DNA from: Patescibacteria group bacterium
Lineage (GTDB): Bacteria > Patescibacteriota > Patescibacteriia > JAXHNJ01
Direction of reading: 5' to 3'
Length of the DNA stretch: 64,000 nt
NCBI GenBank assembly: GCA_041649715.1
Contig: JBAZMP010000001.1
Location: forward strand, 436,638-500,637
Shown: positions 17,097-37,897 of the stretch, piece after piece
How the letters are laid out: every line of letters starts with the position of its first letter
How positions within the stretch are numbered: position 1 is the first letter of the stretch
Translations under genes and position numbers: made by a program
Notes under the pieces: generated by a model
Database searches by the model: none
Told to the model about the DNA's origin: nothing
Seen by the model: only the letters and a program-made list of their open reading frames with translations

Positions 17097-17567
17097 ATGA
17101 TCGACCTAAAACAATTGTGTAAATTTCTGGTAAAAGCGAAAAAATCGACCTATGCGGCTGGTTATCTGGCCAAAAAATCTATCGAGGATAACAAATCGAC
17201 CACCTTGGTTTTTGAAGATGGCGACTGGAAATATCATGATAATTATTTTGGCGGCGAGCCGTACGGCGGCCGGGAGGTAGTATTTTATAAAAATTTCCCG
17301 GTTTATATCATGGTCTATTACGGACGGGTTGAAGAGTCGGTCTCTGACTTTGAGACCGTATACAAAGTTTTGCGAAAAGCATTGGTGCTTATACCGGAAA
17401 ATAAACCCTTTCGCGGTCCCAAACAATATAAACAAGATGATTTGTTATATACTAATAATTTTCAAGGTGATGTTGTTAATTTTTCCGGCGAAGAAACGAT
17501 CAGCAAAAACGGCAAGATATTATACAGCGCAAAATATATGGGAGGATTGGTAGATAAAAGAAGATAA
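17097..17567 (+). CDS. Hypothetical protein, 156 aa.
   Basis: ORF with plausible coding composition. No motif recognised. Confidence 0.45.
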   Translation: MIDLKQLCKFLVKAKKSTYAAGYLAKKSIEDNKSTTLVFEDGDWKYHDNYFGGEPYGGREVVFYKNFPVYIMVYYGRVEESVSDFETVYKVLRKALVLIPENKPFRGPKQYKQDDLLYTNNFQGDVVNFSGEETISKNGKILYSAKYMGGLVDKRR

Positions 17568-17580
17568 AGTGTAAAACTAT

Positions 17581-18126
17581 ATGTTAAAAAAAATTAAAAT
17601 TCATGTAAAAAGTATGGCCGAAGAAGATGATTGGAAGTATCATATTCTTCCCGTTGTAAACTATTCTAAGAGATTGTCCGTGATATATAAAGCTGATAAA
17701 AAAGTTGTTGGGCTGGCAGCCCTGCTTCATGATATTGGTAGAATAAGATTTGGCGAAAAAAATCACGAGATTACGGGAGCCAAGGAAGCGGAAAAAATTC
17801 TGAAAAAATATGGATATTCTCGAAATACTATTGATAAAATTAAACATTGCATAGTCTCTCATAGAGGGAGCAGCAAAACCAAGCCAAAGACGATAGCGGC
17901 TAAAATTATTGCCAATGCCGATGCCATGGCCCACTTTGATTCTTTGCCCATCTTTTTTTATTGGCGACTAGGCGGTAGGAAGTTTGAAGAGGTATTTAAA
18001 TGGATAGATGAGAAGTACAAAAAAGATTGGAATAAAAAATTAACATTGCCGGGATCAAAAAAGATATTAAAAGAAAAATATAAAGCGATTCAAATAGTAC
18101 TAAATTCGAATAAAAAATATATTTGA
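17581..18126 (+). CDS. HD-domain phosphohydrolase.
   Basis: LLHDIGR...H...D metal-binding HD signature. Confidence 0.75.
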   Translation: MLKKIKIHVKSMAEEDDWKYHILPVVNYSKRLSVIYKADKKVVGLAALLHDIGRIRFGEKNHEITGAKEAEKILKKYGYSRNTIDKIKHCIVSHRGSSKTKPKTIAAKIIANADAMAHFDSLPIFFYWRLGGRKFEEVFKWIDEKYKKDWNKKLTLPGSKKILKEKYKAIQIVLNSNKKYI

Positions 18127-18162
18127 CTTTTTAATTTTAACATTGAAATATTTTCAGGCGTT

Positions 18163-18711
18163 ATGAACATAAAAATCACTTACTTTGTTCATGGCACGAC
18201 GACTGATAATGAGAAAGACATTTCTTCGGGCTGGTCTGATGTAGGACTTTCGGAATTAGGCATTGAGCAGTCGATCAAATTAAAAGATCAATTAAAGGAT
18301 AGCAATTTTGATGTGGTATTTTGTTCTGATCTGAAAAGAGCGGTTGAATCTGCGAAGCTAACCTTTGAAGGCGAGGTTAAGATAATTGAAGATAGCAGGT
18401 TGCGGGAATGCAATTACGGGAAATATAATGCCCAGCCTTCTGAAATTGTTGAGCCGTTGCAGGAACGACATATTACAAAAAAATTTCCGGAGGGCGAAAG
18501 CTACGAAGACGTTAAAAAGCGAATCAAGGATTTTCTTATTTTTCTGAAAAAAAATTATCATGGAAGGCGCGTGGGCATTGTTGCTCACAAAGCACCGCAA
18601 TTAGCCCTTGATGTATTGTTAAAAGGCAAAACCTGGCAGGAGGCTTTTACCCAAGATTGGCGGAAAAGAAAAGCCTGGCAGCCAGGCTGGGAATATGATA
18701 TTAGTAAATAA
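18163..18711 (+). CDS. Histidine phosphatase (phosphoglycerate-mutase-like) family protein.
   Basis: N-terminal FVHGTT (RHG-like catalytic His motif) and overall PGAM-like size and composition. Confidence 0.7.
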   Translation: MNIKITYFVHGTTTDNEKDISSGWSDVGLSELGIEQSIKLKDQLKDSNFDVVFCSDLKRAVESAKLTFEGEVKIIEDSRLRECNYGKYNAQPSEIVEPLQERHITKKFPEGESYEDVKKRIKDFLIFLKKNYHGRRVGIVAHKAPQLALDVLLKGKTWQEAFTQDWRKRKAWQPGWEYDISK

Positions 18712-20669: not shown

Positions 20670-21956
20670 ATGAAAGCAAAAAATTTCTTATTTGTTTCTT
20701 GGGAAAGCTTGAGCGGGGATGTCGCTTGGCGGGTACAGAAAGAGGGCCATCATGTCAGGGCCTATATCGACCGGAAGGATGATTCAGATGTTTATGACGG
20801 GCTTTTAGAAAAGGTAAAAAAATGGAAGGATCAGATTGACTGGGCAGATATCGTTGTTTTTGATGACGTCGGTTTCGGCCAGGAGGCGGACCAACTGCGC
20901 CGGGCCGGAAAAAAGGTGGTAGGCGGCAGCGAATATACCGATCGCTTGGAGGATGATCGGGAGTTCGGCCAATCGGAAATGAAAGATACCGGCCTCCAAG
21001 TTCTGCCCCACTGGGATTTTGAAAATTTCCATGCCGGCATAAAATTTATCCGGGAGAATCCGGGCCGTTATGTTTTCAAACCAAGCGGCAAGGCGCAAAG
21101 CAACAAGGATCTGCTTTTTATCGGCGAAGAAGACGAAGGAAATGACATCCTGGAGTTGCTGGAAAGCAATAAAAATCAATGGCGAGAAAAGATAAAGACT
21201 TTCCAGCTGCAGAAATTCGCCGCCGGAGTGGAAATCGCGGTCGGTGCCTTTTTTAACGGTCAAGAGTTTATTACCCCGGTCAACATAAATTTCGAGCATA
21301 AACGGATGTTTCCCGGTGATCTCGGTCCGCTGACCGGCGATATGGGCGCGTTGATGTTTTGGGCCCAGCCCAACGGTTTCTTTAATAATACTCTGGCAAA
21401 AATGGCGCCCAAAATTGCGGCCTCCGGTTACGTGGGCTATCTGGATCTTAATTGTATCGTTAATGGCCGGGGAATTTATCCGCTGGAATTTACTTCCCGA
21501 TTTGGTTACCCGACGATTGACGTGCAGCTATCCAGCCTAGAAATGCCGATTGGCGAGTTTTTATACCGTCTGGCTTCAAAGGAAAAATTCGAAATATTGG
21601 TCAAAAAGGGTTTTCGGATCGGTATTTGCTGCGTGACCTCGCCTTATCTCTCCGAGGATCCAGCCGATATCGCCACTTACCGCGATCTTTCTATTTTATT
21701 CCGCCGGCCTAATCCTGATTGGGAGGGCATTCATCTTGGTGATGTAAAAATGGTTGACGGTCAATTACGGGTGGCCGGGACTTCCGGCTACAGCCTGGTC
21801 GTCTCCGGCGGGGGCAATACGGTTGATGAGGCGCGCAGGCAGGCTTATAACCGGGTAAAAAATATCCGTCTGCAAAATATGTTTTATCGGGTCGATATTG
21901 GCGAGCGCTGGCTGACAGACAGCGATTTGCTGCAAACCTGGGGTTATCTCAAATAA
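20670..21956 (+). CDS. PurD-family (phosphoribosylamine--glycine ligase-like) ATP-grasp enzyme.
   Basis: Collinear similarity to PurD: GDLGPLTGDMGA vs GDKDTGPNTGGMGA, EFTSRFGYP vs EFNCRFGDP, SGGGNTVDEARRQAY vs ALGHTVAEAQKRAY, and a terminal DIGERW vs DIGWRA. Confidence 0.6.
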   Translation: MKAKNFLFVSWESLSGDVAWRVQKEGHHVRAYIDRKDDSDVYDGLLEKVKKWKDQIDWADIVVFDDVGFGQEADQLRRAGKKVVGGSEYTDRLEDDREFGQSEMKDTGLQVLPHWDFENFHAGIKFIRENPGRYVFKPSGKAQSNKDLLFIGEEDEGNDILELLESNKNQWREKIKTFQLQKFAAGVEIAVGAFFNGQEFITPVNINFEHKRMFPGDLGPLTGDMGALMFWAQPNGFFNNTLAKMAPKIAASGYVGYLDLNCIVNGRGIYPLEFTSRFGYPTIDVQLSSLEMPIGEFLYRLASKEKFEILVKKGFRIGICCVTSPYLSEDPADIATYRDLSILFRRPNPDWEGIHLGDVKMVDGQLRVAGTSGYSLVVSGGGNTVDEARRQAYNRVKNIRLQNMFYRVDIGERWLTDSDLLQTWGYLK

Positions 21957-22013: not shown

Positions 22014-24683
22014 ATGTCTTTTATCGGAAAAATTTTTGGCGATGGCAATAAGCGGGTTTTGGATAAACTGACGCCAGTTTTGGCCGAGGTCAATAAATTT
22101 GAAGAAATGATGAAAAAATTGCCTGATGCGGATTTTATTCATAAAACACATGAATTCAAAGGGATGTTGGCTAAGGATCCGTCAAAGATCGACCAAATTT
22201 TACCGGAAGCCTTTGCCATGGCGAGGGAGGCGGCTAAAAGGACTTTGGGCCAAAGGCATTTTGACATGCAGATTCTGGGCGGACTGGTCCTTCATCAGGG
22301 CAAGATCGCGGAAATGAAAACCGGTGAGGGCAAAACATTGGTCGCGACCTTGCCTTTGTATTTAAACGCCTTGACCGGCCGTGGCTGCCACCTGGTTACC
22401 GTGAACGATTATCTTGCCAAACGTGACTGCGGCTGGATGGGGCCGGTATATTACGCGTTGGGGGTGAGTGTGGCCGCCATCGTCCATGAAGAGGCTTTCA
22501 TCTTTGACCCGGATTTTGAAAACAAGGAGGCGATTGACCCTAAGGTAAGACACTTAAAACCCGTCAACCGGCGGCAGGCTTATGAGGCGGATATCACCTA
22601 CGGGACCAATAATGAATTTGGCTTTGACTACTTGCGCGATAATATGGTTCCCGACTTGCCGTATATGGTTCAGCGGGAATTGAATTACGCGATTGTCGAT
22701 GAAGTAGACAGTATCCTGATAGATGAGGCGCGTACCCCACTGATTATTTCCGCTCCGGCGGAGGAATCCACGGAAATGTATTATAAATTTGCCCAGCTTA
22801 TTCCGCAGCTTGAGGAGGGGACAGATTACAATATCGACGAAAAAATGCGGGCCGCCACCTTGACCGAGGAGGGGATGAATAAAATGGAAAAAAAGCTCGG
22901 CCTTTCCAATATCTATGAAGCCGGCGGGATTGAGCTGGTCCATCATCTCGAACAGGCGTTGAAAGCGCACGCCCTTTTTAAAAGAGACAAGGATTATGTG
23001 GTCAAAGAGGGAGAAATTATCATCGTGGATGAATTCACTGGTCGTTTGATGTTTGGACGGCGTTATTCGGAGGGTTTGCACCAGGCCATTGAGGCGAAAG
23101 AAGGTGTGGAGATAAAAAAGGAAAGTCAGACGTTGGCCACCATTTCATTTCAGAATTACTTTCGCATATATAAAAAACTGTCTGGAATGACCGGGACAGC
23201 GGCGACGGAAGCGGAGGAATTCCACAAAATCTATAATCTTGAGGTGATTGTCGTGCCAACCAACAAGCCGATGATCAGAAAAGACTCAAATGACAGTATC
23301 TACAAGTCAGAAAAAGGTAAATTCATGGCTATCGTCCACGAGATCAAGCGCCGGCACGAAATCGGCCAGCCGGTGCTGGTGGGCACGATTTCCATTGAAA
23401 AAAATGAATTATTGGCGGAATTGCTTGAGCGGGAGGGGGTGCCGCATAATGTGTTAAACGCCAAGCAGCACGAGAGAGAGGCGCAGATTATCGCCCAGGC
23501 CGGAAAATTCGGGGCGGTCACCGTGGCCACCAATATGGCCGGTCGCGGCGTGGATATTGTCTTGGGCGGTAACCCGCCGGACGAAAAAGAAGCGCAAAAA
23601 GTAAAAGAAATCGGCGGTCTGCACGTTTTAGGGACCGAGCGTCACGAATCAAGGCGGATTGACAATCAGCTCCGCGGCCGCACCGGCCGCCAAGGCGATC
23701 CGGGCTCATCCCAGTTTTTTATTTCCCTGGAGGATGATTTAATGAGAATCTTCGGTTCAGGCCGGATGAAATCCTTCATGGACCGTCTGGGGGTGCCTGA
23801 GGATATGCCCATTGAAAATAAAATGATTTCCCGGTCGATTGAATCGGCTCAGAAAAAAGTGGAAGGTAATAATTTTGACATCAGAAAACACCTCGTGGAA
23901 TATGATGACGTGATGAATAAGCACCGCGAAGTGATTTACAAGAAACGTCAGCAGATTTTGAATATCAAGCCCGAAGATTTGAGAAAATCATTGATGGAAA
24001 TGATCGACGGAGAAATCGAACAAGTGGTTTTGTTTCACACCACCGCCGAAGATGAAAGGACCTGGAATTTGGATGAGATATACGAGGTGGTTGATACGAT
24101 TTTTCCGGTGCCTCTTTCGACCCGTGTCAAGCTGGAAGATCTGCGAAAAGAGGCCGGTGACAAAGCGGACGATGCCCGTTCACGTTCCCACATCATTGAC
24201 TACCTAATGTCTTTGGCAAATAAGGCCTATGATCAGATGGTCGAACAAATAAATGATACGAACTTCATGCACCAGATCGAAAGGGGAATAATTTTGCGCA
24301 CTATTGATACCCTATGGATCGAACATTTGGACCAGATGAATTATATGCGGACAGGTATCGGCCTGCGCGGTTACGGCCAGCAGGATCCTTTAGTGGAATA
24401 CAAAAAAGAAGCCTTCCAGATGTTTACCCAGCTGATGAACAATATCAACGCTCAGATTGTCTACAGCATCTATAAAATTCCTTTGGCGCAAAAACAAATG
24501 GTTTCTCCGATGCAAACGCAGAAACAGATAGAAACCGCGCCGGCCAAGGTTAGCGTTGAACAGAATGCTCCAGCTGACGGCATTAAGGATAAACCAAAGA
24601 ATGATTCAGGGAAAAAAATCGGACGCAACGATCCCTGCCCTTGCGGGAGCGGGAAAAAATACAAGAAGTGCTGTGGGAAATAG
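22014..24683 (+). CDS. secA: Preprotein translocase ATPase SecA.
   Basis: 889 aa with DEAD-like motor motifs, a preprotein cross-linking domain, and a C-terminal zinc finger [14 protein letters not shown]. Confidence 0.95.
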
Positions 24684-25102
24684 CAAAAAAATCTATGAGT
24701 AAGGTTTATATTTTTGGGCCAATTCATCTGTTTGGCGAGGATTATCTTCCAGTATATAAACATTTAGGGAATTTGTGCAAGAAGCATTTCGATGAGGTTA
24801 TTTGCACGTATCCCGATTTCTGGGATTCTAAAGAAAGTCCGCCAGAGTTTTATGCAAGAACATATAAGACAATTACGAAATGTGATCTATTTATCGGAGA
24901 AGTAAGCGCTCCGTCAATAGGCGTTGGCATGGAATTCCAAATGGCTCAAGAGAAAGATATCCCCTGTATTGCTTTATGCAAAAAGGGAGTAAAGCCGTCA
25001 AGCATGGTTCTAGGCATACCTTGTGTAAAAAAAGTCATTTATTACGAATCTTTAGAAGATATGTCGAAACAACTTGAAGGTGCCATGGAAGTTAGTTATT
25101 GA
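24641..25102 (+). CDS. Nucleoside 2-deoxyribosyltransferase-fold (Nuc_deoxyrib_tr-like) protein. The likely start is MSKVYIFGP at about 24698.
   Basis: VYIFGPI...E...[22 protein letters not shown] matches the NDT-fold pattern (Rossmann-like, conserved Glu). Confidence 0.55.
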
Positions 25103-25114
25103 AAGAATAATCAT

Positions 25115-25609
25115 ATGGAAAATAATAACCAATATCTTCACGAAGTTGCCATTACGGCCATTATTGTGAAAAACGGGAAGTATTTGATTACCAGGCGGTC
25201 GCCTGCCAAGAAGAGATTTCCCGGTTTGTGGACGGTGCCAGGCGGAAAAATGGAAACGAACGATTATCTGAAATTGCCGAAAGACACGGAATTTTATTGG
25301 TATAATGTCCTTGAAAGGACTTTGCGCCGGGAAATAAAAGAAGAAGTAGGCATAGATATTGAAAATATCGAATATGTGACTAGTCTGGCCACGGTTCACG
25401 CGGATGGCAGCCCGTCACTGGTGATTTCTTGCGTGGCCGATTATGTCTCCGGTGAAGTCAAGCTTCAGGTTGAAGAAAATGACCAATTCGCCTGGGTTAG
25501 CTTGAATGAAGCAAAAAACTACAAGCTTCTTGACGGTATTTATGATGAATTAGTCATGGTTGAAAATAAGAGAAATGGCAAGAGAACCGAATGGCAAAGA
25601 TTCAAATAA
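25115..25609 (+). CDS. NUDIX hydrolase.
   Basis: NUDIX box GGKMETNDY...ERTLRREIKEEVGI. Confidence 0.8.
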   Translation: MENNNQYLHEVAITAIIVKNGKYLITRRSPAKKRFPGLWTVPGGKMETNDYLKLPKDTEFYWYNVLERTLRREIKEEVGIDIENIEYVTSLATVHADGSPSLVISCVADYVSGEVKLQVEENDQFAWVSLNEAKNYKLLDGIYDELVMVENKRNGKRTEWQRFK

Positions 25610-25652
25610 TTCTTGCGGACACCTAAATAAAAGCAAGTAAAGTTGTGGGAAA

Positions 25653-25690
25653 TAAAAAGGCCAGCTTCGCGATGAGCTGGCCAGACTAGG
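25653..25690. terminator. Bidirectional hairpin terminator between convergent genes.
   Basis: Stem GGCCAGCT/AGCTGGCC flanked by an A-run on the plus side and a T-run on the minus side. Confidence 0.5.
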
Positions 25691-25702
25691 CTAAGATTGC
25701 CT

Positions 25703-26056
25703 CTAATTCCCGTTCCGTACAGGATGAATCCACCCGACTTCTATGCCGTCAAGAGTGTAGATGTGAAAACCGTGCTGACCGGAGATGTATTGTGGTCTTT
25801 GTTCTCCCGGCTGAAATACATCAATCCAATCAGTGGTTTCTCCTTTGAATATCCAGACTTCCTTGATTCGCACGGGGTAGGAGTTCGTGTTCTTGATCCA
25901 GCCAGACGTGCAATAGCCATGGACGACGATACCGGCCGCGGCTGATTCTGAATTCAGGAATTCCGGATCTTTGCTGGCGGGCTTAACTTGGCAGCTGTTT
26001 GTCAGCAATAACAGGGCGACTAAGGACAACATGGCAATGAAATGAACGGTTCTCAT
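25703..26056 (-). CDS. Secreted or lipoprotein-like hypothetical protein.
   Basis: N-terminal signal peptide MRTVHFIAMLSLVALLLLTNSC, with a Cys close to a lipobox-like position. Confidence 0.5.
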   Translation of the reverse strand: MRTVHFIAMLSLVALLLLTNSCQVKPASKDPEFLNSESAAAGIVVHGYCTSGWIKNTNSYPVRIKEVWIFKGETTDWIDVFQPGEQRPQYISGQHGFHIYTLDGIEVGWIHPVRNGN

Positions 26057-26219
26057 CCTTTTCTCCCTTCTCCTCTCGGGTAAAAAGTTGAAGGTTCAGC
26101 TAATCAACGATTACGAACAGCAAATATTAGCACGTATTGATAGTTTTGTCAAGACAGAAAATGGGCTGCCCAGTAATTATCAAGCAAAATTATAATAAAT
26201 TAAACATAGTACCAAGCTC

Positions 26220-26834
26220 ATGAAAAAGGGCAAAATAATCGCGGTAACGGGCGGACCAAGAAGCGGCAAGAGTACGCTGGTTAAGTTGTTGTCCGAATAT
26301 TATGGCGGGATTGCCTATCTGGAGGGCGAAGAAAGGGATTTCCCCGCAAGAATAATTAATGATATTAAGAGGGGAGAGAACATATTAGAACTAATACTGT
26401 ATTTCCGCAATCTGACTATTGAGCAACATATTCATGCCTTGCGAGAAAAAGCTAAGGGCAAATATTGCTTTATGGACTGTTTTTGGCTGACTAATCAGGC
26501 CTATACAGACGCTTGGGTTAAAGATCAATTTGAGAAGGATATGTTGAATAGATTAATTAAGTATGATGAACAGTTGTTGGGCTGGCCGGATAAAATCATT
26601 GTTTTGGAGAATAGTGTAAAAGGGGTAAAAAAGTTTTTACAAATGGGCGGAAGGGAATTTGAACAATCAGATGAATATCTAGAAAAACAGCAACAGATTC
26701 ATCGTCTTCATAATATTCTATTCGAAGATTTGAAGAAGAAAAGAAAGGACATTATTATTCTTCATAGAGAGGGATTTGATTTTATTAAAAATAAGGATGA
26801 TATTCAAAAAGTAACACAGCTGCTGGATAATTGA
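26220..26834 (+). CDS. P-loop nucleoside/nucleotide kinase-like protein (deoxynucleoside-kinase-like fold).
   Basis: Walker A IIAVTGGPRSGKSTLVK at the N-terminus. About 200 aa, the typical size for dNK or NMP kinases. Confidence 0.55.
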   Translation: MKKGKIIAVTGGPRSGKSTLVKLLSEYYGGIAYLEGEERDFPARIINDIKRGENILELILYFRNLTIEQHIHALREKAKGKYCFMDCFWLTNQAYTDAWVKDQFEKDMLNRLIKYDEQLLGWPDKIIVLENSVKGVKKFLQMGGREFEQSDEYLEKQQQIHRLHNILFEDLKKKRKDIIILHREGFDFIKNKDDIQKVTQLLDN

Positions 26835-26873
26835 GATAATTTATATTATAAATATAAGGCGGGTAAAAATAAT

Positions 26874-27314
26874 ATGGTTGTGGAAAAAAAAGTTGGAGTA
26901 GGATTTGGCGTGATGCTCTTTAATAATGGAAAAATCCTTTTGGGAAGAAGAAATGCTGATCCGAACAAAGCCGATTCCGAGCTGCATTTAGAAGGAACTT
27001 GGACCATGCCCGGCGGTAAGCTTGAATACGGCGAGTCTTTTGAAGATGGGGCAAAAAGAGAAGTATATGAAGAGACGGGACTTAAGCTTAATGAAATGAA
27101 AGTTATCTGCGTGAATAGCGACAGAAATGAATATGCTCATTTTGTTACGATTGGATTATTTTCGGATAAATTCAGCGGAAAGCCGAAAGTTAAGGAACCC
27201 GATGAAATTGTTGAATGGCAATGGTTCGACCTTGATAATTTGCCGAGTCCGTTATATTTTCCGAGTGCCAAGGTCTTAGAGAATTACAAGAGGGGACTTT
27301 TTTATATTCCATAA
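26874..27314 (+). CDS. NUDIX hydrolase.
   Basis: NUDIX box GGKLEYGESFEDGAKREVYEETGL. Confidence 0.8.
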   Translation: MVVEKKVGVGFGVMLFNNGKILLGRRNADPNKADSELHLEGTWTMPGGKLEYGESFEDGAKREVYEETGLKLNEMKVICVNSDRNEYAHFVTIGLFSDKFSGKPKVKEPDEIVEWQWFDLDNLPSPLYFPSAKVLENYKRGLFYIP

Positions 27315-27323
27315 TTTACTATT

Positions 27324-27701
27324 ATGAAGATCGTCTTTATTTCCGGACCGTTAACGACTGGCGGTCGGCCGGAAGACAAGAATTACGTTAGGAACAACGT
27401 TAAAGAAGCCGAGAAGTATCAGATCGCTCTGGTCAACGCCGGCATCGGCTGTTTTTGCGCCCACACTCATACCGCCGATCATCACGCCAAAGGTAGTCTG
27501 GCGCCGGAAACTTTTTACTATGAAATGGATTTTGAATTTTTAAAAAGATTAGCGGATGCCTTACTTGCCATGCCTGGCTGGGAAAAATCAAAGGGGGCCA
27601 CAAAAGAAGTCGAATGGGCGAAGGAAAACAAGCTCCCGATCTTTTATCCGAAATCGCCTGATGATATTAATGATATTATTGATTGGTCGCGTAAAAAATA
27701 A
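27324..27701 (+). CDS. DUF4406-like protein with an NDT-fold (nucleoside 2-deoxyribosyltransferase-like).
   Basis: MKIVFISGPLTTG N-terminus and overall pattern typical of DUF4406. Confidence 0.55.
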   Translation: MKIVFISGPLTTGGRPEDKNYVRNNVKEAEKYQIALVNAGIGCFCAHTHTADHHAKGSLAPETFYYEMDFEFLKRLADALLAMPGWEKSKGATKEVEWAKENKLPIFYPKSPDDINDIIDWSRKK

Positions 27702-27751
27702 TAATCAATTTTAATACAACATATATCATTTTTTGTTATTGATTTCCTCTT

Positions 27752-27780
27752 GACAAACCCCGAAAAATGTGCTAATATTA
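27752..27780 (+). promoter_or_regulatory. Sigma70-type promoter (TTGACA, 17 nt spacer, TAATAT) upstream of the FG-GAP/LDT gene.
   Basis: TTGACAaaccccgaaaaatgtgcTAATAT, followed by a GGCCGGAGGCC hairpin in the leader. Confidence 0.55.
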
Positions 27781-27904: not shown

Positions 27905-29365
27905 TTGTTTTTTAAGGAATGGGACAAAAATAAAAACAAAAAGAAAATGAGAACACACATCCGCTTTTGTTTAGTGGCTTTAATCCTTTTCTTAGGGATT
28001 ATTTTTTTATACCCCAAAAACGTTTCAGCCGCCGGCCAAATTGTGCCGGAGGTAAAAATTTTTGAGAACGGCGTTCAGACGAAGAGTTTCTATGGTTTTG
28101 ACCTGGGTTTTCGCGGCGGTGTGAGAGTTGCGACGGGAGATGTTGACGGGAATGGGGCTGATGAGATAATCGTCGCCGCGGGCGTAAACGGCGGACCGAA
28201 TATTCAGATTTTTAAGAATAACGGCGAAAAGATGATAAGTTTTATGGCTTACGATATAAAGTTTAGAAACGGAGTAAAAGTGACCTCCTGTGACGTTAAC
28301 AACGACGGTAGGGATGAAATTATAACCTCGCCGGGTTTAAGGGGCGGACCAAATGTCAAGATATTTAACGTTGGGGGCGAACAACTTAGAAGTTTCATGG
28401 CCTATGACATTAATTTTCGCGGCGGCGTCAATATCGGTTGCGGAGACGTTAACGCTGACGGCCTGGCGGAAATAATTACGGGAGCCGGTCCGGGTGGCGG
28501 CCCCCATGTTAGAGTTTTCAATCAAAAAGGCGAAAGTTTGAATATGGATTTTTTCCCGTTCAGTTTTAATAATAAAGGAGGGGTGAATATCGCTGTCGGG
28601 AATGTAACCGGCGATGAAAGACCAGAGATCATTGTTTCGGTTGCCCAATTTGGCGTACCGGTTATTGAGGTGTACGACGATCAATGGCATAAGCTTTCGG
28701 GTTTTTATGCTTATGACGTTGAATTTCAGGGCGGAGTAAATATAGCGACCGGCAATATTGATAATGACAATTATGATGAAATAATCGCGGCGGCCAATAC
28801 AGGCGCCGGACCTCATGTCCGCACCCTTGATTACTTAGGCAACAATCAGGAATTGAACTTTTTTCCCTATCCGGTTGATTTCCGCGGAGGAGTCTTTGTC
28901 GCCTCCGGCGACGTGATTGGCGACGGGAAGGATGAGATTATTACCGGACCGGGATTTTTAGCGGATACTCGTTATTCCCAGTACCCGAAATACATTGATA
29001 TCGATATTAGTGAACAAAAACTGAAGGTAATTGAGAACGGGCAGGAGATAGGTGATTATCAGATATCTTCCGGTAAACCGGGAATGGATACGCCCGGCGG
29101 AATTTTTACCGTTCTTAGCAAAAGCCCCACCGCCTATTCAAAAAAGTATGCCTTGTATATGCCATATTGGATGCAGTTCTCCGGCCAGGGCCACGGGTTG
29201 CACGGTCTACCGTATTGGCGCTTACGCGGTGGCGGCGTGATCAAGGAGGGAGAAAATCATTTAGGAATTCGTGTCTCGCATGGTTGCGTGCGTTTATCTT
29301 GGGAAGATGCAGAAATAGTTTATAATTGGGTCTCGATCGGCACACCAATAATTATTCATAACTAA
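27905..29365 (+). CDS. FG-GAP/VCBS-repeat beta-propeller fused to a C-terminal L,D-transpeptidase (YkuD) domain.
   Basis: Signal peptide plus TM, then about 7 repeats of GDV(D/N)GDGxDEIIxGxGxGGGPxV(K/R)(I/V)F. The C-terminus carries the SHGCVRL catalytic motif of L,D-transpeptidases. Confidence 0.8.
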   Translation: MFFKEWDKNKNKKKMRTHIRFCLVALILFLGIIFLYPKNVSAAGQIVPEVKIFENGVQTKSFYGFDLGFRGGVRVATGDVDGNGADEIIVAAGVNGGPNIQIFKNNGEKMISFMAYDIKFRNGVKVTSCDVNNDGRDEIITSPGLRGGPNVKIFNVGGEQLRSFMAYDINFRGGVNIGCGDVNADGLAEIITGAGPGGGPHVRVFNQKGESLNMDFFPFSFNNKGGVNIAVGNVTGDERPEIIVSVAQFGVPVIEVYDDQWHKLSGFYAYDVEFQGGVNIATGNIDNDNYDEIIAAANTGAGPHVRTLDYLGNNQELNFFPYPVDFRGGVFVASGDVIGDGKDEIITGPGFLADTRYSQYPKYIDIDISEQKLKVIENGQEIGDYQISSGKPGMDTPGGIFTVLSKSPTAYSKKYALYMPYWMQFSGQGHGLHGLPYWRLRGGGVIKEGENHLGIRVSHGCVRLSWEDAEIVYNWVSIGTPIIIHN

Positions 29366-29518: not shown

Positions 29519-29929
29519 ATGGAAGAGACAAGGGCCTATTACGAGATTAAGGTTACCGCCGGACTGGTGGTGATTACGGTTTACCGGGGCAAATATGACC
29601 GAGAAACTATTGGCTTGGCCGTGGCCAAATTGCTGGCTGATCGAAGATTAAGCCTTGCGAATCTTAAGGCCTATAAAGCGATTGTGCTCGATGTATCTAT
29701 GGTTGACATGAACAGTGCCGGTATCGGGGGCATAATTGCCCTGACTAAGAAGTATTCGCTTGCCTGCCCGGGCAAGAAGATCTACATCATTATCGGCAGG
29801 AACGAAAGGGTAAGGAATCTTATCAGGGTCACGCGATTGGATATTATCGTAACAGAGGTTCCGGCCGGATATAACGCTGGCAATATCGATGATTTTATCA
29901 AGCAAAAGGAGGCGGAAATAAGCCAATAA
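29519..29929 (+). CDS. STAS-domain protein (anti-sigma-factor antagonist-like).
   Basis: VLDVSMVDMNSAGIGGIIALTKK resembles the SpoIIAA/STAS core. It has a strong RBS (AAAGGAGG), its own promoter and its own terminator. Confidence 0.6.
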   Translation: MEETRAYYEIKVTAGLVVITVYRGKYDRETIGLAVAKLLADRRLSLANLKAYKAIVLDVSMVDMNSAGIGGIIALTKKYSLACPGKKIYIIIGRNERVRNLIRVTRLDIIVTEVPAGYNAGNIDDFIKQKEAEISQ

Positions 29930-30043: not shown

Positions 30044-30829
30044 ATGGAAACATCATCTATTATAAACGAAGAAGTTAGATTCAAAAAATTAAGGATTTAT
30101 AATGTCGTCATGGCTATTTTTCACGCGATTCAGGGCGTATTGATGCTGGTTTTAAGTACTAGTTTTTCCTTGCCCGTGACTACGTCTTTTGTCCAATATA
30201 GCTCCACGGCCGGTAAGCTGGAACCGGTAATAAAGCAAGCTTTTGAAATAAGGCTCGGACTATTAGTCGCAATTTTTCTCTTTCTTTCCGCCCTGGCTCA
30301 TTTTTTGGTTTCCACGTTCTTTTATCGATGGTATGTGAATAATCTAAAGAGGGGGTTGAATTTGGCCCGTTGGATCGAATATTCTTTTAGCTCTTCGTTG
30401 ATGATCGTGGTTATCTCAATGTTGGTCGGGATTTATGATGGCGTAAGCCTAATGCTGATTTTCTTTCTTAATATGATGATGATACTTTTCGGCTGGCTGA
30501 TGGAAGTACATAATCAAACCACGCCAAAGATTAATTGGACTGCATTTATTTTCGGCTGTTTAGCGGGAGCCATTCCCTGGGTGGCAGTCGCCCTGTATTT
30601 GTTTGGTTCGGGAACGCCCGGAGCGAAACCGCCGACTTTTGTCTATTGGATCTTCTTTTCTATTTTTCTTTTCTTTAATATATTTGCCGTCAATATGGTA
30701 TTGCAATATAAAAAAACGGGTAAATGGCGAGATTATCTTTACGGCGAAAAGGTCTATATAATATTAAGTCTGGTGGCTAAATCATTGCTCGCCTGGCAGG
30801 TCTGGGCGGGAACGTTAAGGCCGGTCTAG
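30044..30829 (+). CDS. Heliorhodopsin (inverted-topology microbial rhodopsin).
   Basis: 261 aa, 7 TM. Close collinear match to heliorhodopsin 48C12: RWIEYSFSSSLMIVVIS vs RWVEYSLSSSVMIVLIA, ILFGWLMEV vs ILFGWLQEK, FGCLAGAIPW vs FGCIAGIVPW, and YGEKVYIILSLVAKSLLAWQVWAGTLRP vs RGERAYIVLSLVAKSALAWQIFSGTLIP. The retinal Schiff-base Lys in TM7 is conserved. Confidence 0.85.
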   Translation: METSSIINEEVRFKKLRIYNVVMAIFHAIQGVLMLVLSTSFSLPVTTSFVQYSSTAGKLEPVIKQAFEIRLGLLVAIFLFLSALAHFLVSTFFYRWYVNNLKRGLNLARWIEYSFSSSLMIVVISMLVGIYDGVSLMLIFFLNMMMILFGWLMEVHNQTTPKINWTAFIFGCLAGAIPWVAVALYLFGSGTPGAKPPTFVYWIFFSIFLFFNIFAVNMVLQYKKTGKWRDYLYGEKVYIILSLVAKSLLAWQVWAGTLRPV

Positions 30830-30917: not shown

Positions 30918-32600
30918 ATGTCAATAAGACGTAAGGTTTGGTTAACTTTTTCCGGTATTATTCTACTCGCTGTATTAGCGGGTTTGCTTGATTACCCCAA
31001 AGGCCCGAATATTAAAATTGGCTCATATTTTAAGGAAATCAAAGTTCATCTGGGCCTGGACCTTTCTGGCGGTACCCGCTTGGTCTATCAAGCCGACACC
31101 GCCAACATAGCCGAAGCGGATAAGGCTTCCGCCTTGGATGGGGTTCGTGACGTCATTGAAAGACGGATTAACGCTTTCGGCGTTTCCGAACCGGTTATTC
31201 AGACCAACAAATCTGGAGAAAATTGGCGGGTAACCGTTGAATTACCTGGCATCACCGATATCAGCCAGGCAATAAAGCTTATCGGGGAAACGCCGCTTTT
31301 GGAATTTAAAGAAGAAGCCCCGGCGGCCGTTCTGTCGGATGAACAAAAAAAAGAAATCGAAGATTATAATAAGCAGGCGAAAGAGAAGGCCCTGGGGATG
31401 TTAGCGGAAGCACTAAAAAGCGGCGCGGATTTTGCCGCTTTGGCTAGCGAGTATAGCGAAGATCCGGGCAGTAAAGATCAGGGCGGTGATTTGGGCTTTT
31501 TTGGTGAAGGGGAGATGGTAGCTGAGTTTAACGAGGTGGCATTTAGCAAAGCGGTAAAAGGTGTGGTCTATCCGGAGCTCGTCGAGACGGTCTATGGTTA
31601 TCATATTATCTTAAAAACCGATGAAAAAGTGACCGATGGCAAAAAAGAGGTAAGGGCTTCTCACATTCTGATCCTTAAAAAAAGCGAAGCCGATTACCAA
31701 ACCGGCGAAGCGTACGTTGAGACCGGTCTTTCCGGCCAACAATTGCAAAGAGCCTTTGTGGAGTTTGACCAGAACACTGGAGCGCCGAGCGTCGGTTTGG
31801 AATTCAACGACGAGGGAAAGAAATTATTTTCCGACATTACTGAGAGAAATATTAATAAGATTGTCGCTATTTATCTGGATGGTTCTCCGATTTCATTGCC
31901 TACGGTAAATTCCAAAATTACGGAAGGAACGGCCGTCATTACCGGTAATTTTACTCTGACCGAGGCCAAGACCTTGGCTCAACGTCTAAACTCCGGGGCT
32001 TTACCCGTGCCCATCACTTTAATAAGTCAGCAGAATATCGGGGCCACTTTAGGTAAAATATCGGTTCAAAAAAGCTTGTTCGCCGGACTTTTAGGACTGT
32101 TTTCTGTCGCCTTCTTTATGATCATTTTTTACCGTTTACCCGGTCTTCTTTCCGTTCTCGCCCTCATTATTTATTCTTTAGTCGCGTTGGCCATTTTTAA
32201 GCTTTGGCCAGTGACCATGACCTTGGCCGGTGTCGCCGGTTTTATCCTTTCCATCGGTATGGCGGTGGATGCCAATGTATTGATTTTTGAACGGATGAAG
32301 GAAGAACTAGAGGCGGGAAAACCTTTGGATTTGGCAATTGAAGACGGATTTAAACGGGCCTGGCTTTCCATCCGTGATTCAAACGTTTCTTCCATTATCA
32401 CTTGTATTATATTGGCTTGGTTTGGAACAAGCTTAATAAAGGGATTTGCCATTACTTTAGCCATCGGCATCTTCGTTTCTATGTTCTCGGCGATCACGGT
32501 CACCCGAACTTTTTTAAGACTGATGGTCGGTCCCCGCTTATCCAGCCATTTGGCCTGGTTCGGCGTTAAACAAAATCATACACCAGAAAAAAATGTATAA
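30918..32600 (+). CDS. secD: Protein translocase subunit SecD with a parvulin-type (PpiC) peptidyl-prolyl isomerase domain inserted in the first periplasmic domain.
   Basis: SecD TM1, P1 domain and the C-terminal 5-TM core are present. Residues around 140-235 (GADFAALASEYSEDPGSKDQGGDLGFFGEGEMVAEFNEVAFS...VYGYHIIL) match the PpiC rotamase domain. Confidence 0.85.
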   Translation: MSIRRKVWLTFSGIILLAVLAGLLDYPKGPNIKIGSYFKEIKVHLGLDLSGGTRLVYQADTANIAEADKASALDGVRDVIERRINAFGVSEPVIQTNKSGENWRVTVELPGITDISQAIKLIGETPLLEFKEEAPAAVLSDEQKKEIEDYNKQAKEKALGMLAEALKSGADFAALASEYSEDPGSKDQGGDLGFFGEGEMVAEFNEVAFSKAVKGVVYPELVETVYGYHIILKTDEKVTDGKKEVRASHILILKKSEADYQTGEAYVETGLSGQQLQRAFVEFDQNTGAPSVGLEFNDEGKKLFSDITERNINKIVAIYLDGSPISLPTVNSKITEGTAVITGNFTLTEAKTLAQRLNSGALPVPITLISQQNIGATLGKISVQKSLFAGLLGLFSVAFFMIIFYRLPGLLSVLALIIYSLVALAIFKLWPVTMTLAGVAGFILSIGMAVDANVLIFERMKEELEAGKPLDLAIEDGFKRAWLSIRDSNVSSIITCIILAWFGTSLIKGFAITLAIGIFVSMFSAITVTRTFLRLMVGPRLSSHLAWFGVKQNHTPEKNV

Positions 32601-33483
32601 CATCATCCAAAAAAGAAATTTTTTCTTTTCCGTTTCAGGTGTTTTTATTATCATTAGCCTGGTATTCATATTCTTGGGCGGTCTTAAGTTCAGTATTGAT
32701 TTTACCGGCGGGGCGCTGATGCAAGTTGAGTTTAAAGGGGAAAGACCATCCGCGCCGGAAGTCGAAGCCTCTTTGGCGGAGTTAAACCTGGGAACTATTA
32801 ATATTCAGAACGTCGGAGAGAAGGACATGATTCTAAAAATGAGAAATATTAATAACGACGAAAGAGTATCCATAACGGAAAATCTCCAAAACCTCAGACC
32901 GATGGAGGAAAAAACCTTTGACACGGTCGGTCCGATTATTGGCCAGGAGTTGAAAAGAAAAGCGATCTACGCCAATATTTTAGTATTAATCTGTATTATT
33001 ATTTATCTCGCCTGGGCTTTCCGTAAAATATCCTCTTATAGAGTTTCCAGCTGGCTGTTCGGCATAAACGCAGTCATTGCCCTGATCCATGATATATTAA
33101 TCACGATCGGACTTTTCTCCGTTTTAGGTTATTTTTTTAATATAGAAGTGGACAGCCTTTTCGTTACGGCTCTTCTTACTATCTTGGGTTTTTCCGTTCA
33201 TGACACAATCGTCGTATTCGACCGGATCCGTGAAGGAATAAAAAAAGATTTTTCTTCGCCGTTCGAAACGATAATAAACCGAAGTATTAATGAAACCATG
33301 ATCCGTTCTCTGAATACTACCATCACCACTTTTTTGGTTTTGATCGCTTTATTTCTTTTTGGCGGTGAATCTGTGAAGTACTTTGTTCTCGCCCTGATGT
33401 TCGGCATCGTTATCGGGACCTATTCTTCAATATTTATCGCTTCGCCACTTCTTTTGCTTTGGAACCGTTTCCGAACAAAATAA
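32593..33483 (+). CDS. secF: Protein translocase subunit SecF.
   Basis: 296 aa, 6 TM, SecF motifs, adjacent to secD. Confidence 0.9.
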   Translation: MYNIIQKRNFFFSVSGVFIIISLVFIFLGGLKFSIDFTGGALMQVEFKGERPSAPEVEASLAELNLGTINIQNVGEKDMILKMRNINNDERVSITENLQNLRPMEEKTFDTVGPIIGQELKRKAIYANILVLICIIIYLAWAFRKISSYRVSSWLFGINAVIALIHDILITIGLFSVLGYFFNIEVDSLFVTALLTILGFSVHDTIVVFDRIREGIKKDFSSPFETIINRSINETMIRSLNTTITTFLVLIALFLFGGESVKYFVLALMFGIVIGTYSSIFIASPLLLLWNRFRTK

Positions 33484-36187: not shown

Positions 36188-37897
36188 ATGACCTATCAGT
36201 CAAATACAACCGCCGATGACGTTACCCCGTTCGGCCTGACCAACTTTAGGAATCTCAGGCGGAAATTCGGCATTAAAACCGACGATCGACGCCGGCACAT
36301 GTATCTTATCGGAAAAACCGGTATGGGCAAATCGACGGTCATTGAAAACATGATTATTGATGATATCAAAAAGGGCAAAGGAGTGGCCCTGATCGATCCC
36401 TTGGGCGACCTAGTTGAAAAAGTGATAGATTTTATTCCGAGTTACCGGGTTAATGACGTCGTGTATTTCAACCCCTCGGATCTGGATTATCCCATTGCCT
36501 TTAACGTCCTTGAGTCAATTGATCCGACTCATCACCATTTAATAACTTCCGGTTTGATCGCCGTCTTTAAAAAAATCTGGGTCGATTCCTGGGGCCCACG
36601 TTTGGAGTATGTTTTGCGCAACACTATTTTGGCTCTTTTAGAATATCCGGGCAGCACATTACTGGGAGTGACGCGTCTGCTTGTGGACAAGGATTACCGC
36701 CGCAAAGTTGTCAGCCGTCTGACCGATCCGATCGTCAAAGCCTTCTGGCTGGACGAATATTCGGCCTATTCTAATCAGTTCCGCACCGAAGCGATCTCGC
36801 CTATTCAAAATAAAGTCGGACAGTTTTTGTCCAGCTCGGTAATAAGGAATATCGTGGGTCAGTCAAAAAGCACCATTGATATGCGAGAGATCATGGATAA
36901 CGGGAAAATCCTCCTTATGAATTTGGCCAAGGGTAGGATAGGCGAGGATAATTCTTCCTTGTTAGGCGCTATGATGGTGACAAAAATACAATTAGCGGCC
37001 ATGAGCCGGGTAGACACCCCAGAAGAACAAAGACGCGATTTTTATCTTTATGTCGATGAATTTCAGAATTTTGCTACGGAGAGTTTTGCCACGATTCTTT
37101 CCGAAGCGAGAAAATACCGGTTAAACCTGACCATTGCTCATCAATATATAGAACAACTGGATGAGAAAGTAGCGGCGGCTGTTTTCGGCAATGTGGGGAC
37201 CTTGGTGGTATTCCGTGTCGGGGCGGCCGACGCCGAATTCTTGCTCAAGGAATTTGAGCCGATCTTTACAGAAACGGACTTGGTCAATCTGACCAAGTTT
37301 GAGATATATTTAAAACTGATGATTGATGGTGTTTCCTCCGATCCCTTTTCCGCCCTTACCTTACCGCCTTTGCATGAGCAGGAAAATAATCATGAAAAAA
37401 TAATCTTGGTTTCACGGGAAAGATACACCAAGCCAAGGAAGGAAGTAGAGGAAAAAATTACTCGGTGGAGCGGCGTGGACGACATGTTCCGGGAAACGGC
37501 TCAGGAGGAAAATCGTGCGGAAGAAAGAAATCGTCCGGGCCGTAATTTTGAAGGCGGTAAAAGATTTAAACAGGGGGCGAGGTTTCCGGAAAAAGCTCGA
37601 CCCCAAGAAGAAGGCGGCCGGGAAGAAGAGCCGAAAATTGACCTAAGCAAGGCTAAACTGGAGCCGGTGGCCAGAGAAATAAATGAACCCCCCATTTCTT
37701 TAAGCGAGGCCTTAGCCCGCGGTTCAATTTCTTTCGGCGGAAAAAGTCAAAAGCCATTTCCCTCCCCGTCGCCTGATAGCCGTCCGGCAACCTATGCCCC
37801 GCCTGCCCGGTCAAATATTAACCCCAAAGATAACAGTTATGGATCACCTCAACCCTTAAGACGAGGTCAGGTGGTAAAATTTAACCCTAAATTTTGA
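36188..37897 (+). CDS. FtsK/HerA/VirD4-superfamily P-loop NTPase (DUF87/TraD-like) with a long disordered R/E/G/P-rich C-terminal tail.
   Basis: Walker A LIGKTGMGKST, then DPLGDL and YFNPSD...FNVL motifs reminiscent of VirD4/HerA. Walker B LYVDEFQNF. The C-terminal 140 aa are low-complexity. Confidence 0.6.
   Translation: MTYQSNTTADDVTPFGLTNFRNLRRKFGIKTDDRRRHMYLIGKTGMGKSTVIENMIIDDIKKGKGVALIDPLGDLVEKVIDFIPSYRVNDVVYFNPSDLDYPIAFNVLESIDPTHHHLITSGLIAVFKKIWVDSWGPRLEYVLRNTILALLEYPGSTLLGVTRLLVDKDYRRKVVSRLTDPIVKAFWLDEYSAYSNQFRTEAISPIQNKVGQFLSSSVIRNIVGQSKSTIDMREIMDNGKILLMNLAKGRIGEDNSSLLGAMMVTKIQLAAMSRVDTPEEQRRDFYLYVDEFQNFATESFATILSEARKYRLNLTIAHQYIEQLDEKVAAAVFGNVGTLVVFRVGAADAEFLLKEFEPIFTETDLVNLTKFEIYLKLMIDGVSSDPFSALTLPPLHEQENNHEKIILVSRERYTKPRKEVEEKITRWSGVDDMFRETAQEENRAEERNRPGRNFEGGKRFKQGARFPEKARPQEEGGREEEPKIDLSKAKLEPVAREINEPPISLSEALARGSISFGGKSQKPFPSPSPDSRPATYAPPARSNINPKDNSYGSPQPLRRGQVVKFNPKF

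Follow-up and report, generated by a model that had tools for sequence, protein, structure and literature searches.

Predicted nucleotide salvage and sanitation genes as a loose neighbourhood in the variable secA-secDF interval of a Patescibacteria genome

Genes A, B, D, E and F are predicted nucleotide-handling genes that lie between secA and the secD/secF pair in a 64-kb stretch of DNA (the window), which is ordinary chromosomal DNA of a Patescibacteria metagenome-assembled genome. The secA-secDF interval holds nine open reading frames (ORFs) according to the ORF list, namely genes A to F, an FG-GAP plus YkuD gene, an ORF of 136 amino acids (aa) and a heliorhodopsin gene. We consider, with a probability of about 60%, that the region is a lineage-specific, loose neighbourhood in a hypervariable interval, with enzymes for nucleotide salvage and pool sanitation that were acquired independently of one another. 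All five proteins come from already known superfamilies. Their combination is one-off to this genome and is not a conserved pathway, a defence system or an antibiotic cluster.

Patescibacteria, which belong to the candidate phyla radiation (CPR), and DPANN archaea do not synthesize their own nucleotides and depend on scavenging. How these organisms keep damaged or modified foreign nucleotides out of their DNA is poorly understood, and nothing on CPR nucleotide sanitation with the families described here was found in the literature. The interval offers testable candidates for this task: a DNPH1-like family found in two domains of life (A), a DUF4406 protein with a ribose-type signature (F), two NUDIX hydrolases (B and E) and an atypical kinase of the deoxynucleoside kinase (dNK)/thymidylate kinase (TMPK) fold (D). 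Such nucleotide genes gather around one conserved NUDIX gene beside the sec genes. For annotation the lesson is that a thematic cluster in a single genome is an operon only when synteny supports it. The genes and their anchors are as follows.

22014..24683, plus strand: secA, an 889-aa ORF, left anchor of the variable interval
24695..25102, plus strand: gene A, predicted DNPH1/MilB-like N-glycosidase of the nucleoside deoxyribosyltransferase (NDT) fold, by profile and AlphaFold2 (AF2)/Foldseek; PF05014 is sub-threshold
25115..25609, plus strand: gene B, NUDIX hydrolase, NudG/NudI-like (PF00293)
26220..26834, plus strand: gene D, P-loop kinase of the dNK/thymidylate-kinase fold (AAA_28; AF2/Foldseek)
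26874..27314, plus strand: gene E, canonical NUDIX hydrolase of the AtNUDX1/NUDT15/MTH1 type (PF00293)
27324..27701, plus strand: gene F, DUF4406, NDT-clan protein (PF14359)
30918..32600, plus strand: secD (ORF), right anchor
32593..33483, plus strand: secF (ORF), right anchor

An earlier note on this DNA, made from the sequence alone, had described a cluster of five nucleotide-handling genes. Pfam, family profiles and structure models place all five proteins in such families, and the six ORFs from A to F lie where they had been reported, with only the start of gene A corrected. What gained no support is the idea that they form an island in the sense of a single unit. Across about 130 related loci (L001-L133), no two of A, D and F occur together, so conserved synteny is largely lacking, and the pairings seen with B were restricted to B with F (L013/L065 and L011) and B with E (solely L066). 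Homologues of gene A at 81%, 70% and 68% identity (L001, L004 and the archaeal L003, respectively) have unrelated neighbours, none of them a NUDIX, kinase or DUF4406 gene. Homologues of gene D stand alone, after a conserved protein described below, or with other genes. The 73%-identical orthologue (L010) lies between secA, whose product carries the SecA Pfam domains, and secD, and is followed there by DUF1653, HD, 23S-rRNA-IVP and metallophosphatase genes; a 74%-identical orthologue is likewise without E and F. Among the 39 loci of gene F, neither A nor D was present in any, and a NUDIX gene was within 5 kb in five and adjacent in three. Gene F adjoins secA or secDF in six loci (L012, L013, L017, L018, L035 and L038).

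Gene B behaves differently. Its orthologues were found at 73-92% identity in 80 loci (L050-L129), of which none contains A or D and one contains F. An E-like NUDIX gene is present in 6 of the 80, with a close E orthologue (2e-73) in L066 alone. In at least 33 related loci a SecA homologue is encoded ahead of B or F, in 17 SecD/SecF homologues follow B directly, and in the minimal form (L063, L070, L077 and L084) B is the sole ORF called in a gap of about 520 bp between secA and secD. Since A, D, E and F are absent around most B loci, secA-B-secDF is the conserved frame and all other content is variable. Clustering by sequence sorts the 167 tenant ORFs of the interval into 88 groups. The closest relatives by B identity illustrate this, with different components at equivalent positions: one has the order secA, AAA_17/33 kinase, B and, further on, dCMP deaminase, GNAT and glyoxalase (L050), and the other secA, AAA_18 kinase, B, HAD hydrolase, dCMP deaminase and, further on, E (L066).

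Although the five genes are not inherited together, their clustering looks like more than chance, because the same interval is enriched in NUDIX and other nucleotide enzymes in relatives when compared with flanking DNA. A Pfam scan of 122 non-B tenants from all related loci detected 12 NUDIX proteins, 5 dCMP/cytidine deaminases, 3 PF05014 proteins, 3 DUF4406 proteins and 2 HD proteins; the remaining tenants include GNATs, DUF5674, CutA1, SET and ASCH proteins. The deaminase counts rest on Pfam alone, as a motif regular expression did not recover the Pfam-detected deaminases. In 141 control ORFs outside the slot of the same loci, none of these nucleotide families is among the 25 commonest families, and motif and profile counts gave 2 NUDIX proteins and 1 PF05014-like protein. 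The difference for NUDIX (12/122 versus 2/141) has a Fisher p of 0.004, and this enrichment of the slot is mildly new. It would be unlikely, then, that small housekeeping genes of common but unrelated families came to lie side by side by accident in a reduced, gene-dense genome, their adjacency having no bearing on function. The missing synteny among the five genes fits such an accident, as does the presence in the slot of GNATs, glyoxalase, SET, CutA1, DUF1653, 23S-rRNA-IVP, transpeptidase and heliorhodopsin. Against it, nucleotide enzymes that are not orthologous recur in the slot of many relatives, several-fold enriched over flanking DNA, and the NUDIX tenants alone belong to at least seven sequence clusters.

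Gene A encodes a protein identical to NCBI WC528_02345. It scored 15.4 bits against PF05014, below the Pfam cut-off of 28.8, so its assignment to the NDT fold needed further tests. Single-sequence searches of the PDB were uninformative for A, D and F, and family profiles were needed. A profile of 44 gene A sequences matches DNPH1/Rcl at about 1e-4 and BcmB at 2e-3. In Foldseek, the PDB entries that best match the AF2 model (predicted local distance difference test score, pLDDT, 89) are MilB, DNPH1 and BcmB, with template modelling (TM) scores of 0.72-0.79 and a probability of 1.00. Among the nearest relatives that were aligned, 68 of 83 are PF05014 members (E<=1e-3). Profile, predicted model and nearest relatives together place gene A in the NDT fold, so that the NDT-like character assigned to it earlier stood, if not at the Pfam threshold. 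In an exhaustive profile search the core of the family is tight: at E<=1e-30 it comprises only 6 representatives, about as many clusters as are formed at 50% identity, and 1,620 weaker relatives surround it.

The human DNPH1 sequence used for mapping the residues of gene A matches the published numbering at 11 checked positions. E80 of gene A is invariant in all 44 members and aligns to the DNPH1 nucleophile E104. S74 and S102 are also invariant and align to the phosphate-binding S98 and S128'. Further correspondences are G76 with G100, M104 with M130, G107 with G133 and T56 with D80, and by eye 'VYIFGPI' of gene A matches 'LYFCGSI' of DNPH1, which pairs Y5 with Y24. In DNPH1, E104 acts as nucleophile, D80 is the general acid, and S98 and S128' hold the 5'-phosphate; Y24 marks deoxyribose, and F17 of MilB marks ribose (PMC10603095). 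Ser87, Ser117', Glu93 and Met119' take the same roles in rat Rcl (PMC3834327). Because Y5, E80, S74, S102 and M104 are kept, gene A looks like a 5'-phosphate-specific, deoxyribose-preferring N-glycosidase that carries Thr in place of the general-acid Asp.

Gene A thus shares with DNPH1/Rcl the fold, the P-S-x-G-V-G-x-E nucleophile motif, both phosphate serines, the Met of the helical extension and the Tyr at the Y24 position. It differs in its low identity (17-20%), in the Thr for Asp80 and in the E55/H56 pair, which is not recognisably conserved. No published residue comparison of Rcl with NDTs was found in the literature. Unlike DNPH1, family A is prokaryotic and forms a tight clade that is common to Patescibacteria and DPANN archaea, across which its members are 60-81% identical. 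Proteins from Patescibacteria and from Woesearchaeota/Nanoarchaeota (L003, P0022, P0082 and P0084) share 65-75%, and one of these contigs (L003, Ga0104751_1000001) is truly archaeal, because it encodes a histone, Hjc, a tRNA-intron endonuclease and FEN1. The high identity between domains implies that the family probably moved recently from one to the other, i.e. between two ultra-small lineages. As an unannotated, CPR/DPANN-wide family with an Asp-to-Thr change, it is the most notable detail of the region and mildly new.

The two NUDIX hydrolases that the earlier note had named are both clear members of PF00293 (cut-off 21.1), with 60.6 bits for B and 84.5 bits for E. The best PDB matches of B are the CTP pyrophosphohydrolase NudG and NudI, and every NCBIfam equivalog score is far below its cut-off. 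Gene B carries an insertion of about 14 aa within the NUDIX box (the TNDYLKLPKDTEFYWYNV region) that is near-invariant in 83 orthologues; it interrupts the GX5E part of the box GX5EX7REUXEEXGU and leaves REIKEEVGI intact. Compared with E. coli NudG (a CTP/5-methyl-dCTP pyrophosphohydrolase), NudI and MutT, which supply its best PDB and NCBIfam matches, B has the same NUDIX fold and REx2EExGU helix. It differs in its sub-equivalog scores, the box insertion of about 14 residues and the fixed position between secA and secD. Its conservation is unusually strong for a NUDIX protein, and the insertion together with the fixed place at the sec locus is mildly new. Gene E, by comparison, carries the canonical NUDIX box GKLEYGESFEDGAKREVYEE and matches AtNUDX1 (3.5e-22), NUDT15 (about 3e-11) and MTH1 (about 5e-9).

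Gene D had been called dNK-like, a call that holds for its fold and not at the Pfam threshold. Its score against dNK PF01712 is 19.3 bits (cut-off 27), compared with 27.8 for the 73%-identical orthologue from L010, and AAA_28 (32 bits, cut-off 27) is the sole Pfam family that it passes. It also matches the thymidylate kinase family phrog_761 at 7e-12, and its family profile matches thymidylate kinases weakly. The AF2 model (pLDDT 90.6) gave whole-chain Foldseek matches with TM scores of 0.65-0.81, led by the deoxyadenosine kinase (dAK) of Giardia (0.81) and followed by deoxycytidine kinase (dCK), the dAK of M. mycoides and TMPKs. The P-loop GGPRSGKST is invariant. With dNKs (dAK, dCK and deoxyguanosine kinase, dGK) and TMPKs, gene D has in common the fold, the P-loop, a TMPK-like 'FPxR' and a 'GGREFE' lid that resembles 'GxERYE'; it is set apart by sub-threshold profile scores, by a missing Arg in the ERS/DRY motif, and by its tiny family of 16 clusters.

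The Pfam result for D also raises the question of a salvage route for NAD and nicotinamide riboside. D would then be a kinase like ribosylnicotinamide kinase, a NUDIX protein would split NAD(H) into NMN(H) and AMP, and removal or exchange of the pyridine base would fall to the NDT-fold proteins. AAA_28 as the only family that D passes and weak NadR matches point in this direction, as do sub-threshold matches of E and B to NAD+ diphosphatase models. We regard this as very unlikely, since no score for NadR or NAD diphosphatase comes near its curated cut-off, the fold of D matches dNK, dCK and TMPK with NadR absent from the top 50, E is closest to NUDX1, NUDT15 and MTH1, and no NMN adenylyltransferase is encoded in the interval or in the flanking genes scanned.

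Two loci from distant genomes show a further feature beside gene D. Just before the D homologue, L005 (5183-6004) and L006 (5141-5992) encode a conserved protein of 273-283 aa, with a 4-nt overlap or an 8-nt gap. The two proteins are 65% identical to each other and share an 'RHG' motif; they have no Pfam or NCBIfam match, and none is encoded in the window. This conserved protein is a possible partner of the kinase. A relationship to the His_Phos_1 gene of the window was considered and rejected, as the two are unrelated.

Gene F is a DUF4406 protein, as had been proposed, with 31.4 bits against PF14359 (cut-off 22); DUF1937 is passed narrowly (23.2 bits, cut-off 23), and phrog_355, labelled 'nucleoside 2-deoxyribosyltransferase', is matched at 1e-14. 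Its family profile reaches BcmB (0.011) and 1t1j (0.018) as best PDB matches. S89, G91 and E95 (S89-x-G-x3-E95) are invariant in 36 sequences and align with the motif of MilB/BcmB and of family A, with the same Ser-to-Glu spacing as in gene A; G8, H47, H49, Y65 and W86 are also invariant. A profile-profile comparison of A and F is weak (probability 7.9%, E 0.0044); it aligns the catalytic motifs and is no proof of a specific relationship. At the position of DNPH1 Tyr24, gene F has Phe5, and by analogy with the ribose-permitting F17 of MilB this residue would permit ribonucleotides. The family has DPANN members (L031, L045 and P0223), and the three papers found to mention DUF4406 use the name solely as an annotation label. 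In one further locus (L132, 2504-5972), a 72%-identical F homologue lies between genes for an AbiEii toxin and a serine recombinase, which is a mobile or accessory context.

The similarity to MilB and BcmB, which are N-glycosidases of CMP and hydroxymethyl-CMP, bears on a set of readings that place the genes in conflict or secondary metabolism. The earlier note had considered modified-nucleotide biosynthesis, self-resistance to nucleoside antibiotics and nucleotide-depletion immunity; none of these gained ground, and we judge this group (anti-phage depletion, MilB/BcmB-like self-resistance or hypermodified-base biosynthesis) to be highly improbable. MilB and BcmB are among the best structural matches of A and provide the best PDB profile match of F. 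The sequence similarity is marginal (E 0.002-0.011), and no antibiotic biosynthetic partners are nearby; a partner of the CMP hydroxymethylase type is lacking among the interval genes and the flanking genes scanned. Both NUDIX proteins match the PADLOC candidate PDC-S07, which is a single NUDIX-domain model, and therefore the matches show NUDIX homology only; otherwise PADLOC yields at most P-loop-level similarity (D). The F homologue beside AbiEii and a serine recombinase and the existence of PHROG families for D, E and F would suit these readings. Within the interval, partners of the hydroxymethylase or thymidylate-synthase type are absent, as are a sensor, an effector, an integrase and a tRNA, and B is vertically conserved and tied to the sec operon. 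Pattern-seeded profile scans of IMG/VR, which can miss distant relatives, detected nothing close to A, D or F: A had no locus, and D and F had one distant locus apiece (33-34% identity). A phage origin of the three genes was dropped on this result.

Salvage and sanitation in an auxotrophic CPR cell, which was also proposed in the earlier note, is the best fit to the closest characterised relatives (DNPH1/MilB, NudG/NudI, AtNUDX1/NUDT15/MTH1 and dNK/TMPK). The ancestral content of the interval would have been NUDIX B alone. This genome would have gained A on the upstream side of B and, on the downstream side, C, D-E-F, the transpeptidase, the 136-aa ORF and heliorhodopsin. A cell that lacks de novo synthesis would import foreign nucleosides and nucleotides, and kinase D would re-phosphorylate salvaged deoxynucleosides or deoxynucleoside monophosphates (dNMPs). 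The NUDIX proteins B (pyrimidine-(d)NTP type) and E (MTH1/NUDT15/NUDX1 type) would break down (d)NTPs that are damaged or unwanted into monophosphates. Subsequently, gene A would cut the N-glycosidic bond of non-canonical dNMPs to give the base and deoxyribose 5-phosphate, and gene F would perform the same reaction, perhaps on ribonucleotides. The enzymes would share a metabolite pool and would not constitute an obligatory, co-inherited pathway.

The same chemistry can be arranged as a dedicated catabolic pathway, in which B and E turn (d)NTPs into (d)NMPs, A and F release the free base and (deoxy)ribose 5-phosphate for central carbon metabolism, and D gates entry. CPR and DPANN organisms use nucleotide-to-sugar routes, which serve as the model here. 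Chemically, this reaction order agrees with the families assigned, A and F are common to CPR and DPANN organisms of similar scavenging lifestyle, and D, E and F are closely spaced. We nevertheless find it quite unlikely, because the five genes are not co-inherited across the related loci and because no deoxyribose-phosphate aldolase, phosphopentomutase or RuBisCO-pathway gene is present in the interval or the ten flanking genes scanned.

A parallel to the salvage and sanitation neighbourhood is found in mammals, where the route from DCK over DCTD to DNPH1 processes and eliminates nucleotides derived from 5-hydroxymethyl-deoxycytidine (PMC13184875). Counterparts of this route and of MTH1/NUDT15 recur in the slot: a dNK-fold kinase, a dCMP deaminase (L050 and L066), a DNPH1-like hydrolase and an MTH1/NUDT15-like NUDIX protein. 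The mammalian genes are dispersed and their substrates defined, whereas here the components vary by genome and the functions are predicted. As a tentative and rather doubtful extension, the slot anchored on the near-invariant NUDIX B could be a collecting site that swaps enzymes for the quarantine of foreign nucleotides (NUDIX proteins, dCMP deaminases, DNPH1-like and DUF4406 glycosidases and small kinases). Family A, as a new Asp-to-Thr variant of DNPH1 exchanged between CPR and DPANN organisms, would then destroy modified dNMPs derived from host or phage before they enter the DNA of the symbiont.

Several points weigh against the reading as an independently acquired salvage and sanitation neighbourhood. 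Thr56 takes the place of DNPH1 Asp80 in 43 of 44 family A members, while 45 of the 79 next-nearest relatives have Asp and 18 have Ala; as Thr replaces the general acid, the chemistry of gene A may differ or be slow. The best Pfam match of gene D, AAA_28, is the family that holds the ribosylnicotinamide kinase domain of NadR. In dNKs and TMPKs the ERS/DRY motif is defined by an Arg after strand 3, and the invariant D86-x-F88-W89 of gene D is without it. The substrates of all five proteins are ones that we infer from family membership and conserved residues. The tight spacing of D, E and F (39 nt and 9 nt) may reflect local co-transcription and hence local functional coupling. Counts for F and D are biased, as it was the presence of F or D that led to the retrieval of the 39 F loci and L010; those for NUDIX, deaminase and PF05014 proteins are not. 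The related loci that underlie the enrichment statistic are not independent of each other, and some of the extra NUDIX tenants may be tandem duplicates of B.

The other features of the interval are listed here.

25659..25682, minus strand: hairpin, terminator-like, between the convergent genes B and C; 8-bp stem with 6 GC pairs and a T-run
25703..26056, minus strand: gene C, 117-aa ORF with a signal-like N-terminus, outside the nucleotide set
27905..29365, plus strand: FG-GAP plus YkuD L,D-transpeptidase (Pfam), interval tenant unrelated to nucleotides
29519..29929, plus strand: 136-aa ORF without family, interval tenant
30044..30829, plus strand: heliorhodopsin (PF18761, 336.6 bits, E 9.5e-101), interval tenant unrelated to nucleotides

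The start listed for gene A, a TTG at 24641, falls inside secA. The most likely start is the ATG at 24695, 11 nt past the secA stop. Gene A is separated from B by 12 nt. Spacing and signals suggest three putative transcription units, namely secA-A-B, C and D-E-F. The first ends at the strong hairpin given above, and a perfect TATAAT (26191-26196) lies 23 nt ahead of the ATG of gene D. Gene C interrupts the nucleotide set on the opposite strand, as had been noted, and the description of its product as of secreted type agrees with the hydrophobic, signal-like segment at the N-terminus; it has no Pfam, NCBIfam, PHROG or PADLOC match. Its own promoter-like site, TTGACA-17-TAATAT, is located at 26152-26124. 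This site belongs to an inverted pair of 32 nt (26123-26154 and 27748-27779, 78% complementary) that brackets D-E-F. Both copies are promoter-like TTGACA-17-TAATAT sequences with a TG extension and point outward, to C and to the YkuD gene. They are probably the promoter consensus of the organism and not the ends of a mobile element. No flanking direct repeats that would suggest an integrated element were found, the window contains no tRNA, and an Rfam scan of 20-34 kb detected no riboswitch or other RNA. A 33%-identical homologue of the FG-GAP plus YkuD protein is encoded within the same secA-secD interval of another locus (L012, 3033-4370).

Additional genes of possible relevance lie outside the interval. 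About 6 kb upstream of secA (17097-18711, plus strand), genes for DUF5680, an HD-domain phosphohydrolase (58.8 bits) and a protein of the histidine-phosphatase superfamily (105.6 bits) follow each other in a row and may represent more nucleotide- or phosphoester-handling enzymes. Directly upstream of secA (20670-21956, plus strand), a PurD-like ATP-grasp protein is encoded (GARS_A 43.2 bits; GARS_C 35.9 bits, cut-off 34.8), which is odd for a lineage expected to be without de novo purine synthesis. Downstream in the window lie genes for a TrwB/TraG-like type IV coupling protein (36188-37897) and cysS (39750-41156). At L006, one of the loci with a D homologue, cysS adjoins genes for a TraG-like ATPase and a pilin of a type IV secretion system (T4SS), which suggests a conserved T4SS-like module in the two genomes.

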